Positions 18,529 through 56,474 of a stretch of 64,000 nucleotides of DNA are shown here, in pieces (within the stretch, counting starts at the first letter, position 1; every line of letters starts with the position of its first letter). The stretch is from Candidatus Thorarchaeota archaeon. Its GTDB lineage: Archaea > Asgardarchaeota > Thorarchaeia > Thorarchaeales > Thorarchaeaceae. Under the pieces are notes generated by a model, which saw nothing but the letters and a program-made list of their open reading frames with translations, was not told the DNA's origin and did no database searches. Both the position numbers and the translations under genes were made by a program. The stretch is from contig CP070761.1 in NCBI GenBank assembly GCA_020348985.1, positions 1,732,591-1,796,590 on the forward strand, written 5' to 3'.

Positions 18529-19812
18529 CTACTGTTCAAGATCGTCAAACGTATAGATCCTCATCGTTATGGGCTTCTTTTCTATGTCAGCCACTGCCGC
18601 ACCTATGAGGGCCTTAGTCTTCTTCTTGGCCGCAATGTCTACAAGACGCTGAGTTACGACACCGTCAAAAACTACGGCATAGACAGTTTCTTGCTCTTCG
18701 AGGGTTTTGGCCAGTTCGGCCACTCCACATTCAACAAGAACCTCTTTCTTTTCGTCAAACAGTGCAGCTTTGAAGGATTCCTTGACTTCTACAACTTTGG
18801 ACAAGAGAGACGTGCCAATGCTGTCTAGGTCAACCCTCGGCCTTCTGGCTCTTCTGGGCGGTCTGCGCCTGTCATCATCGCGATCATCCAGTGCTCGCCT
18901 CTCTCTCCTTCTAGGAGGTTCTTCTCTCTTGGTCTTTCTAGGTTGCCTTCTCCTCTTGGCTGAAGGAGCAGCTACTCCCATTACCAATGCAAGTGCTTGG
19001 TCGGCGGGCACCTTGGCCTGAAGAGCCTTTATCACTTCCCTGCGAGTGAGTTCTTCAACTTCCTTTCCCTCAGGTGCTCTTGCTATATAGTTGATTCGTG
19101 CCACTTGCATCAATTCTCTAAGAATCAGATCGCCACCTCTATCACCATCTAGAAATGCAATGACAGTCTTCTTCTTCTTTGCAAGTTCTGTAATCGTCTT
19201 CGGGACTCGAGTCCCTTCGACAGCTATTGTGTTGCTGATTCCGCACTTCAGCAAATTCAGAATATCAGCCCGTCCCTCAACTATGATTATTTCATCGCTG
19301 GATGCAAGCTCTGGTCCAGCTGGCAGCTTATCTGCCCCGAATTTTGTAATAGCTTTCTTGCTAAACTTTGTTACAGCACCCGTAATCTCCTCGGTTCCAG
19401 GGGCGATGTCTTCTTCCCATCCTTTCAGTATGCTAATTGCCCTACTAACAACCTTCCGTCTCTTGGCTCCTCGAATATCTTCTAGTTTGAGAAGCGTAAC
19501 TTTCGCGAGACACGGTCCTACCCTGTCTACAGTTTCAAGAGCGGCAGCAAGAATTGCAGTTGCAGTCTTGTTAAGCGAAACAGGAATGACAATCTCCCCT
19601 TTGCTAATCCCCGCTTGAGATTTTATTGCAATCTGAATTCTACCTACTCTTCCGGTTCGTTGTAGTTCCCTCAAGTCTAGGTCTTCACCTAGTAGTCCTT
19701 CAGTTTGACCAAAGACGGCGCCTATTACATCTGGCTTGTCGACTATACCTTCAATCTCTATTTTCGCACGTATGACGTACTTGGCGGTAGACTCGTTAAA
19801 GTCGCCTTTCAT
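18529..19812 (-). CDS. dnaG: Archaeal DnaG (TOPRIM; exosome-associated)
   Basis: DVIGAVFGQTEGLLG, VEGRAD, DGDRGG, DGVVTQRL. Confidence 0.96.
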   Translation of the reverse strand: MKGDFNESTAKYVIRAKIEIEGIVDKPDVIGAVFGQTEGLLGEDLDLRELQRTGRVGRIQIAIKSQAGISKGEIVIPVSLNKTATAILAAALETVDRVGPCLAKVTLLKLEDIRGAKRRKVVSRAISILKGWEEDIAPGTEEITGAVTKFSKKAITKFGADKLPAGPELASSDEIIIVEGRADILNLLKCGISNTIAVEGTRVPKTITELAKKKKTVIAFLDGDRGGDLILRELMQVARINYIARAPEGKEVEELTRREVIKALQAKVPADQALALVMGVAAPSAKRRRQPRKTKREEPPRRRERRALDDRDDDRRRPPRRARRPRVDLDSIGTSLLSKVVEVKESFKAALFDEKKEVLVECGVAELAKTLEEQETVYAVVFDGVVTQRLVDIAAKKKTKALIGAAVADIEKKPITMRIYTFDDLEQ

Positions 19813-20231
19813 TCATTTGGTATCTCCTATGAAAACCATGCCACGAGTCTTCCATTCTGTGACTACGGTGACTTCCACCTTTCCCATGCATAAGACTTGG
19901 GTCTCCTTCTTGCCCCCTTGGATTGATCTCTTTCAGAGCTTCCCAAGCCAATTCATTCTCGAATTATGGTGAGCGTGATAGTGATGATCCAATGACTAGT
20001 GGTCTTCTAGTGACCATTGTGAAAGCCTGTCAGCACCCTGCCACTAGTACACAGCTGGGTCCCGCGGCCATGATTATGATGATATGATGATTGTAAATCG
20101 CAGCTGACCTCTGTCAGCCGTCATTCACATTTACGACTTCAAGTCTAGTGTATTTGAAGATGTCGTTAACGCTGTACCATCCGACAAAAATGACGCGACC
20201 AGTGTCATTCGAGTGTCATTACGCGCCAATT

Positions 20232-20246
20232 GAAAATCCTAATAAC
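20232..20246 (+). promoter_or_regulatory. Putative BRE/TATA promoter for the candidate ncRNA
   Basis: GAAAA followed by CTAATAAC, about 22 nt upstream of the first helix. Confidence 0.45.
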
Positions 20247-20266
20247 TTGAGGTGTTGTGTATCTAC

Positions 20267-20580
20267 TGTCTAGGAGATAGCACTCCCACTTACGAGGGCG
20301 CACTGAGGCTATGCTTGTGAAGTGTTGCGCAAGGGGTGGGTAACAGCCTAGACATTGCCAGTCAAGTACCAAACGGACGAGTCACAACGGACTCGCACAA
20401 TGGGGACTTCAGTCCTTCAGATGAGTCGCGGGTCACCCTGACTTCGTACATTGACTGGCCGGTCGATGTCGGCAATTCCCGCCGCGAGACAACTTGGTGG
20501 AGTCGGATGCAATTTCCGCTGCCGTGATGCCAAGAGTTAGTGTGCTGGGGAACAGGCATCGGCCACCGTATTCTGAATGC
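20267..20580 (+). ncRNA. Unassigned large structured RNA (candidate)
   Basis: About 10 nested or adjacent helices found by eye; non-Watson-Crick pairs read as G-U on the + strand; no credible ORF. Confidence 0.65.
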
Positions 20581-20610
20581 ACATTGCTTCTTCATCCGGT
20601 TACGTCAGTA

Positions 20611-21285
20611 TCAGAACTTGTACTCTCGAGATTCTCCCGGGCTGATGACCTCGACTTTGGTATTCGGTGATTTGTCATTGACGAGTTCAGCAAACTTGCC
20701 AGTATCTGCAGAAATGACAGGAAACGTATCATAGTGCATTGGTACCACAACCTTGGGATTGACAAGCTTCGTGGCAGTTGCCGCTTCCGTCTCTCCCATC
20801 ACGAAGTACGAACCAATTGGGCTGAAGAAGAGATCAATGTTGTAGAGTTCTCCGAAAAGCTGCATATCTGAGAACACCCCAGTATCCCCAGGATGGTAGA
20901 CTGTTCCGCACGGAAACTTCACAATGAACCCCGTAGGAGCGCCAGTGGAGGAGGAGTGAAAAGCATGAACCAAAGTGACTGTGATGTCCTCTACCGTCAC
21001 ACTTCCGCCGATGTTTAGTGTGTGAACATTCTCAACCCCCTCTGACTGGGCTTTTATTCCAAGTTCATTGATCGCGATGAAGGTGGCTCTGGTTTTCTTA
21101 CAGATTTGGATGGCTTCTGCATATCCATGATCTCCATGATCATGTGTAACAAGAACGATATCCGCTGCATCAACTTCTTCAGGTTTCAAAGGAGATGTAG
21201 GTCCTGTCAACCAAGGATCAATGAAGACCGCCTTCTTGCCACATTCAATCTTGAATGATGCATGACCAAGGTACGTAACACGCAT
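20611..21285 (-). CDS. Metallo-beta-lactamase fold hydrolase (UPF0173)
   Basis: LGHASF, THDHGDH, GDT, PMHY. Confidence 0.92.
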   Translation of the reverse strand: MRVTYLGHASFKIECGKKAVFIDPWLTGPTSPLKPEEVDAADIVLVTHDHGDHGYAEAIQICKKTRATFIAINELGIKAQSEGVENVHTLNIGGSVTVEDITVTLVHAFHSSSTGAPTGFIVKFPCGTVYHPGDTGVFSDMQLFGELYNIDLFFSPIGSYFVMGETEAATATKLVNPKVVVPMHYDTFPVISADTGKFAELVNDKSPNTKVEVISPGESREYKF

Positions 21286-24785: not shown

Positions 24786-24855
24786 GGCCCTGAACTATGG
24801 TTTTCCTTTAAGGCTAACTATCTCGTCATTTTATTGCCTCAGAAGAAGGAAGAAT

Positions 24856-24973
24856 GTGCCAGCTCAAGGGCTTCTCACGGGCTCGCGCACCGCAGACTTC
24901 CCTTGACGGACATCGGGCTTAACTTCCGAGATCGGAACGAGTTCGGGTGAACCCCGACGCCTATGGCCGGCAT
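24856..24973 (-). rRNA. rrf: 5S rRNA (stand-alone)
   Basis: GGCCAUAG, CCCGAACUCGUUCCGAUCUCGGAAGUUAAGC; terminal helix UGCCGGC/GCUGGCA; TTTAAA promoter upstream. Confidence 0.93.
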
Positions 24974-25064
24974 CGTTTCCGACTTGACTCTGTCGTGTTT
25001 TAAAGCTTGCTCTCTAGCAGATTGGAATTGAATAGCAGCGAGGGGTTTGAAGCACACAATGTTA

Positions 25065-56219: not shown

Positions 56220-56474
56220 ATGCGTCGACTCGGTAAGGTATTGCACATCTCAAAGCGCGGTGCTCTGATCCTTCGAACTGAGAAGACACCTCCAATGGGG
56301 AAGGAAGCCATCGTAGTGGACAAGAAGGTCCAAAAAATCGGATGGATACAAGACGTGTTTGGTCCAGTGAAGAATCCCTATGTCTCAGTCAAGCCATATG
56401 ACAAGATGGCCGCCGAGAAGTTGTTAGGTCAAATTCTCTATCTCTATCGGCGAAAAAGCACACCGAAGAGATAA
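56220..56474 (+). CDS. gar1: H/ACA RNP subunit Gar1/Naf1
   Basis: LG.VLH, IG.I.DVFGPV.NPY. Confidence 0.92.
   Translation: MRRLGKVLHISKRGALILRTEKTPPMGKEAIVVDKKVQKIGWIQDVFGPVKNPYVSVKPYDKMAAEKLLGQILYLYRRKSTPKR

Follow-up and report, generated by a model that had tools for sequence, protein, structure and literature searches.

The closest described relatives of the locus studied here are the archaeal box H/ACA guide sRNAs known as Pf7, Pho40 and Pab40 in Pyrococcus and as Afu-4 in Archaeoglobus. In Pf7/Pab40/Afu-4, stem I is directed at position 2588 of the P. abyssi 23S rRNA, stem II at position 2678, which corresponds to pseudouridine 2621 of H. marismortui, and stem III at position 2016 in helix 69 (PMC2377435; PMC2584109). 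The hairpins of the Thermococcales RNAs have been described as adjacent (PMC2584109), and the Rfam family RF00064 (HgcG) is the same RNA as Pab40 (PMC4652768). Another point of comparison is sR-h45 of Haloferax volcanii, whose stem-loop SL1 makes pseudouridine 2605, the third U of the UUUA run between helices 90 and 93, and whose SL2 acts on helix 69, forming pseudouridines 1940 and 1942 while a UAUG stretch stays unpaired in the pocket (PMC7075261). Unlike the RNA described below, sR-h45 has no homologue of stem I, and a 56-nt linker separates its stem-loops.

By the published rules, the lower stem of an archaeal H/ACA motif has about 7 bp or more, the strands of its internal loop have 5–11 nt each and its upper stem has 5–6 bp (PMC2377435); a K-turn or K-loop places tandem sheared G·A pairs about 9–10 nt from the upper stem's base (PMC7075261). 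For the ACA box, we looked for an ACA (ANA) triplet 3' of the lower stem and about 15 ± 1 nt from the last guide–target pair. Eukaryotic H/ACA RNAs, for comparison, are built as hairpin-hinge-hairpin-tail, carry H and ACA boxes, and need no K-turn in their binding of Nhp2.

Here we analyze a locus in a stretch of 64,000 nt from a Candidatus Thorarchaeota archaeon (assembly GCA_020348985.1, contig CP070761.1, positions 1,732,591 to 1,796,590; hereafter the window, to which all plain coordinates refer). This locus very probably encodes a three-motif archaeal box H/ACA guide sRNA that is the Thorarchaeota orthologue of Pf7/Pho40/Pab40/Afu-4. Like those RNAs, it combines in a single transcript three H/ACA motifs, all of them equipped with a K-turn and an ACA box, and its last two motifs, domains 2 and 3, correspond to SL1 and SL2 of sR-h45.

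An RNA Gene with a Conserved Promoter

The RNA occupies positions 20267..20566 of the plus strand (about 300 nt, with putative ends), within an 800-nt gap between two minus-strand genes, one for a Toprim/DnaG-like protein (18529-19812) and one for a metallo-beta-lactamase-fold protein (20611-21285). Alignment of the loci found in genomes of the same family revealed a BRE/TATA-like promoter on the same strand, GCGCCAATTG-nn-AA-nn-CTAATAAC (20222..20246, with the TATA-like CTAATAAC at 20239-20246), which is near-invariant in most of the aligned loci and is flanked by sequence devoid of conservation. The element lies about 21 nt upstream of the first stem of the RNA, and transcription would be expected to start at about 20265-20270, judging from the usual archaeal TATA spacing. 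At the other end, conservation stops sharply past GGCAUCGGC-CAC, and a T-rich stretch follows. An initial annotation of this DNA had proposed a trans-acting noncoding RNA on the plus strand with its own promoter, rather than a leader; the orientation of both flanking genes and the conservation of the promoter bear this out.

That annotation had also called for folding energies to be compared with dinucleotide shuffles, for covariation among homologues and for metatranscriptomic reads. The plus strand of the RNA locus folds with a minimum free energy of -119.2 kcal/mol (z = -2.19 versus dinucleotide shuffles), whereas the minus strand does no better than its shuffles (z = -0.17). Contigs from four metatranscriptomic libraries, belonging to three studies, fall within 20292-20564. 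No RNA-library contig was found elsewhere in 19600-21100, and the uncovered flanks carry no evidential weight. We take these contigs as weak evidence of expression. The start shared by the contigs, at 20292/20293, most likely marks the onset of conservation and not an end of the RNA. The outcome for covariation, which was likewise positive, is given below.

Upstream of the promoter, most same-family loci contain a second conserved block (19962-20178, read on the plus strand), in which UGAUGA-like motifs recur, UACA follows a covarying hairpin, and GUAUUUGAAGAUGUCG is near-invariant. In Rfam this block gave only a weak C/D-snoRNA-like match at 20079-20125 (E = 2.6), and RNAalifold found no consensus structure for it. 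The block may represent another small RNA or else, on the other strand, a long leader or promoter of dnaG. A 5S rRNA gene is located in the window at 24854-24974, 4.3 kb from the H/ACA sRNA, and in three relatives (loci L064, L071 and L072, in genomes G014, G037 and G043, respectively) one contig carries both the SRP RNA gene and, 5–12 kb away, that of the H/ACA sRNA. Stable-RNA genes appear loosely clustered.

Three Box H/ACA-Like Motifs

Domain 1 (20267..20354) comprises motif I and its outer clamp. A covarying outer helix (20267-20274 / 20347-20354) encloses the lower stem H1 (20285-20291 / 20334-20340, with 5 of 7 pairs compensated), the invariant 5' guide ACGAGG (20292-20297), the upper stem H2 (20298-20303 / 20322-20328), a K-turn formed by UGA 20304-20306 with UGAA 20318-20321, the invariant 3' guide GCAAG (20329-20333) and an invariant ACA box (20343-20345). 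We delimited the pocket by homology to other Asgard lineages, whose hairpins are fuller. In some genera the 3' guide is reduced to 3 bp.

Domain 2 (20357..20459) repeats this plan, with a covarying outer helix (20357-20365 / 20451-20459), covarying stems H1 (20377-20383 / 20440-20447) and H2 (20390-20396 / 20428-20434), the 5' guide ACAACG(G) at 20384-20390 and the 3' guide ACCCU at 20435-20439. Its upper part consists of a G·A motif (20397-20401 / 20419-20427) and an apical hairpin (20402-20418), and its ACA box (20448-20450) is placed immediately 3' of H1. In domain 3 (20462..20563), 7 of the 9 pairs of the outer helix (20462-20470 / 20555-20563) are compensated, as are 4 of the 6 pairs of H2 (20493-20498 / 20529-20534). 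The other elements of this motif are H1 (20478-20485 / 20540-20549), the 5' guide GAGACAA (20486-20492), a K-turn made by GGA 20499-20501 with CGUGAU 20523-20528, an apical hairpin (20502-20522), the 3' guide AGUUA(GU) (20535-20541) and the ACA box (20552-20554).

The dimensions of the three motifs resemble each other: lower stems of 6–8 pairs, upper stems of 6–7 bp and pocket strands of 5–7 nt. Listed as lower stem, pocket and upper stem, they measure 7 bp, 6x5 nt and 6 bp in domain 1, 7 bp, 6-7x5 nt and 6–7 bp in domain 2, and 6 bp (with an internal bulge in the window's copy), 7x5-7 nt and 6 bp in domain 3. K-turns are recognizable as sequence motifs, the G·A positions 8–10 being conserved in domains 1 and 3; for domain 2, the family consensus at 9–10 is AUGAU / AGAUGA, the 5' side of the window's own copy reading ACAAU (its 5' G·A reads AA). 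The ACA triplet is invariant in all three domains. Two nucleotides separate it from the lower stem in domains 1 and 3, and, counted from the last guide–target pair, it lies at 14 nt in domain 1, at 13 nt in domain 2 (or 15 nt, with the third U as reference) and at 16 nt in domain 3. By the rules of PMC2377435 and PMC7075261, each domain thus reads as an archaeal box H/ACA motif. Domain 3 of the Bathyarchaeia is a textbook example, with an H1 of 7 bp (CCCACGU/ACGUGGG), a pocket of 8x8 nt, an H2 of 6 bp and the ACA right after the stem.

Around half of the helices drawn in the initial annotation survive in this architecture. Covariation supports UGUCUAGG/CCUAGACA, CCCAC/GUGGG and the GGGGAC/GUCCUU hairpin in full, and most of GCGCA/UGCGC. 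In the long helix postulated for domain 2, CCAGUCAA does pair with 20451-20459, but the extension of that helix through GACAUUG and 20464-20470 is not supported; in domain 3, the CGGA/UCCG hairpin covaries, but CGGCA/UGCCG and CCGCC/GGUGG find no support. The four-way junction imagined within domain 2 is replaced by one long irregular hairpin, in which CGAGUC pairs with GACUUCG and GACUCGC with GCGGGUC. Similarly, the separate fourth domain (GAUGCC/GGCAUC) disappears, as GGCAUCGGC (20555-20563) pairs with GUCGAUGUC (20462-20470) to give the outer helix of domain 3.

The same annotation had pointed to a weak C box and a weak D box near the 3' end. The former (GUGAUGC) is internal and turns out to be the bulged strand of the domain 3 K-turn, while the latter (CUGA 20573) falls outside the conserved RNA and is not conserved itself. 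A box C/D sRNA was considered and rejected, as that class has terminal C (RUGAUGA) and D (CUGA) boxes brought together by a terminal stem. The K-turns of the RNA do resemble the C'/D' motifs of archaeal box C/D sRNAs (CUGA...UGAUG in domain 1, GGA...GUGAU in domain 3), but the RNA has neither terminal C/D boxes nor a 12-nt guide upstream of a D box.

Outer Clamp Helices

Every motif is enclosed by an additional outer helix that covaries strongly both within the Thorarchaeota family and across phyla; in the cross-phylum comparison, all 8 pairs of the domain 2 clamp and all 9 of the domain 3 clamp have undergone double changes. Since these helices enclose the motifs, the ACA boxes come to lie in internal loops, not in a tail or a linker, and a 5' loop of 7–13 nt is left inside the outer helix.

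In the accounts of the known family that we consulted, we came across no mention of outer clamps. The clamped layout might represent an undescribed architectural variant of H/ACA sRNAs, extending from the Thorarchaeota and other Asgard lineages to the Bathyarchaeia, a suggestion that we make tentatively and consider rather doubtful. If it were correct, the clamps could pre-organize three Cbf5 modules on one scaffold or shield the ends of the RNA.

Distribution and Covariation

Searches with blastn detected the RNA as a single copy in 30 of 36 genomes of the same family (Thorarchaeota) and in none outside it. A covariance model built from domains 2 and 3 reached further: it gave one full-length match in each of 26 same-family genomes (26/26) and also matched 27 other genomes, distributed over 14 further families of the phylum. 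A pattern scan with the core of domain 3, run on one genome per prokaryotic species, returned matches in Thorarchaeota, under other Asgard labels (Promethearchaeota, Heimdallarchaeota and Helarchaeota), in many Bathyarchaeia and in one Woesearchaeota. For the Bathyarchaeia, the presence of full-length domains 2 and 3 was confirmed by the covariance model.

When applied to an alignment of 22 sequences, RNAalifold predicted 71 pairs, 36 of which show compensatory changes. In the cross-phylum alignment, the observed covariation was reached by none of 500 shuffles, and controls in which the pairing partner was slid along the alignment dropped to about one-sixth of the observed score. The stems covary, and invariance is at least 90% in the pocket strands and in the three ACA triplets. 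Such a combination of invariant loops flanked by covarying stems is the pattern of a guide RNA.

RNAalifold also placed three pairs inside the domain 3 pocket. None of these ever covaries, and 32 of the 37 cross-phylum sequences leave one of them unpaired. We accordingly rejected the self-pairing GAC/GUU, one pair of which is unpaired outside the Thorarchaeota family, and we retained the CAC/GUG pairing as part of the lower stem.

Domain 1 is dispensable: in at least four genomes a short hairpin takes its place, which parallels the absence of stem I in haloarchaea (PMC2584109). Of domain 1, the Bathyarchaeia appear to retain no more than a remnant, located at the RNA's 5' edge. At this same edge, a C-box-like sequence, GCGAUGAUAG, is conserved upstream of domain 1 in an Odin-like locus (L079) and, likewise, upstream of domain 2 in three loci from Bathyarchaeia (L138, L155 and L193). 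This arrangement recalls Pab21, which occurs both with and without a C/D motif (PMC2377435).

Predicted Targets in 23S rRNA

The metagenome-assembled genome (MAG) to which the window belongs contains no assembled 16S, 23S or SRP RNA, so that all targets had to be read from the rRNA of relatives. The record of this genome consists of 132 contigs joined by 100-N spacers, and absences from it are not to be read as losses. We scanned the rRNA sets of four relatives, allowing Watson–Crick pairs only. Each pocket had one best site per relative, apart from domain 2 in one genome (G015), where a second site scored equally, and bipartite complementarity was found in these rRNAs for all three pockets.

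The match of domain 1 has the canonical 5+5 Watson–Crick geometry: its guides GCAAG and CGAGG pair with CUUGC and CCUCG around an unpaired UU in the large-subunit (LSU) rRNA of all four relatives, a score equalled by only 4 of 500 shuffled guides. The predicted target is U2496 (E. coli numbering) at the base of helix 89, equivalent to P. abyssi 2588.

For domain 2, the guide ACCC pairs with GGGU and the guide CAACGG with CCGUUG in the target GGGU-UUAGA-CCGUUG, again in the LSU rRNA of 4/4 relatives. The site flanks the UUUAGA run between helices 90 and 93, and the predicted target is U2585/2586, corresponding to P. abyssi 2678, H. marismortui 2621 and H. volcanii 2605. The pairing amounts to 4+6 pairs, with a 3' arm of just 4 bp and five target bases unpaired, and it was equalled by 146 of 500 shuffled guides; on its own, the complementarity of domain 2 is not significant. 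The 3' guide of sR-h45 contributes two A's, which pair with the first two U's of the run, whereas in the Thorarchaeota there is one A and two U's are unpaired; other Asgard lineages retain AACCC. The loss in the Thorarchaeota of the second A, which in sR-h45 pairs with the middle U, leaves more than one U as a candidate for modification.

The two arms of the domain 3 pocket, searched separately, led to the two strands of 23S helix 69, which in the Thorarchaeota has the sequence GGGACUAACUAUGAGUCUCUU. Here ACUAAC is paired by the 3' guide GUUAGU and GUCUC by the 5' guide GAGAC, leaving the loop UAUG(A) unpaired. The target ACUAAC(U)-(U)AUGA-GUCUC thus offers 11–12 Watson–Crick pairs (6–7 plus 5) in 4/4 relatives, a score matched by 25 of 500 shuffled guides. 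Predicted targets in the helix 69 loop are U1915 and/or U1917, the counterparts of P. abyssi 2016 and H. volcanii 1940/1942. The resemblance of domain 2 and domain 3 to SL1 and SL2 of sR-h45 extends to the targets, their order and the unpaired UAUG. Domain 3 also resembles yeast snR191 and human U19, in which one H/ACA pocket serves two conserved pseudouridines of helix 69 (PMC2584109).

The exact uridine modified by each motif is a prediction. A scan with more flexible geometry that admitted G·U pairs performed at chance level, its scores being equalled by 106 of 300 shuffles for domain 3 and by 145 of 300 for domain 2, and we do not draw on it as support.

Guide and target covary at two of the three sites. 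In helix 69, the Thorarchaeota have G1920 (E. coli numbering) and the domain 3 guide GAGAC, whereas C1920 occurs together with the guide GAGAG in the other Asgard lineages and in the single genome of Bathyarchaeia that was examined. At the domain 2 site, CGUUG with the guide CAACG in the Thorarchaeota is replaced elsewhere by CGUCG with the guide CGACG or GACG. If the reading is right, the flip in the helix 69 stem from G-C to C-G, with its matching guide, would constitute a clean natural case of co-evolution between rRNA and guide.

In two of the relatives (G011 and G015), the target uridines of domains 1 and 2 are exactly 90 nt apart, the same distance as between P. abyssi 2588 and 2678. In two other Thorarchaeota, the spacing is 519 nt (L107, LSU of G005) and 121 nt (L109, LSU of G004), and in the LSU of G005 the sequence immediately 5' of GGGUUUAG is unrelated to the usual GUGAGCU. 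These longer spacings are probably due to rRNA introns or insertions beside the target in the peptidyl-transferase centre.

Discussion

Domains 1 to 3 match the target equivalents of Pf7/Pab40 in the same 5'-to-3' order. Although the statistics of single pockets can be weak, this ordered agreement with the stem targets of Pf7/Pab40/Afu-4 makes the assignment strong, and so do the covariation between guides and targets, the 90-nt spacing and the protein genes of the host. The genome encodes the core proteins Cbf5 (430 bits), Nop10 and Gar1, and two further proteins match the L7Ae Pfam family (PF01248), a match at the level of the family and not a specific assignment as L7Ae. A Gar1-domain ORF is present in the window itself (56226-56444, plus strand; G000:C1:1788816-1789034).

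Two known stable RNAs were considered as identities and discarded, in agreement with the initial annotation. RNase P RNA is encoded at a separate locus of the same genome (G000:C1:992421-992761). The MAG has no Archaea_SRP match, yet its relatives carry SRP RNA as well as the H/ACA sRNA, at distinct loci. The RNase P RNA gene is preceded on its own strand, at a distance of 76 nt, by the Cbf5 gene (G000:C1:991389-992345), an adjacency that may reflect a conserved linkage of two L7Ae-associated RNP components.

In the mechanism that we propose, the H/ACA sRNA would be transcribed from its own promoter, and each hairpin would be bound by L7Ae at the K-turn and by Cbf5–Nop10–Gar1 at the lower stem and ACA box. 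The strands of the internal loop would pair with 23S rRNA on both sides of the target uridine, which Cbf5 would convert to pseudouridine. One could imagine, instead, that an H/ACA-type RNP pairs with the same 23S regions mainly as a folding or processing chaperone and not as a modification guide. Eukaryotic snR30/U17 acts as such a chaperone for 18S rRNA. A role of this kind would suit the 4–5 target bases left unpaired by domains 2 and 3, as opposed to the canonical two, the outer helices that join the three motifs in one compact scaffold, and the clustering of the targets at the peptidyl-transferase centre and helix 69. We nevertheless regard it as improbable, given that the geometry of domain 1 is fully canonical, with an unpaired UN, that the ACA spacing fits the n+15 rule within about 2 nt, and that the stem-loops of sR-h45, which have the same atypical UAUG pocket, make pseudouridines both in vivo and in vitro (PMC7075261).

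The initial annotation had favored an undescribed trans-acting Asgard RNA, for which the absence of an Rfam hit would count as support. As a rival reading, this would be an RNA confined to Asgard archaea whose function has no tie to known families. Our Rfam search did come out empty: across all families, nothing in the region reached the gathering threshold or E <= 10, and the RF00064 covariance model had no match at E <= 10 in the whole genome. Among the papers that we searched, none treats H/ACA sRNAs together with Asgard archaea. Yet RF00064 is a narrow Thermococcales model, and it is this narrowness that the miss reflects; the failure to match weakens a claim of membership at the sequence level and leaves the functional assignment intact. 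Moreover, all the defining features of an H/ACA sRNA are present, the three targets agree in order with those of Pf7/Afu-4/Pab40 and sR-h45, and the occurrence of domains 2 and 3 in the Bathyarchaeia shows that the RNA is not Asgard-specific, so that an undescribed kind of RNA strikes us as very improbable. A small protein-coding gene or a cis-regulatory leader is harder still to credit. The window does contain ORFs over the RNA (20336-20527 on the plus strand and 20362-20595 on the minus strand, 63 and 77 codons, respectively), but nearly all homologues have stop codons in the window's frame and differ in length by amounts that are not multiples of three, the substitutions in the stems are compensatory, and both flanking genes run on the opposite strand.

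The reading as an orthologue of Pf7/Pho40/Pab40/Afu-4 reveals neither a new class of RNA nor a eukaryote-like innovation. It assigns a function to an 800-nt intergenic region that had seemed empty, and it indicates that Asgard archaea and Bathyarchaeia possess, overlooked by Rfam-based annotation, the most conserved H/ACA guide of archaea, the one directed at the peptidyl-transferase centre and helix 69. A broader Rfam family could be seeded with our alignments and covariance model, and the co-variation of guides with their targets, together with the outer clamps, adds modest new points for the field of H/ACA RNPs.
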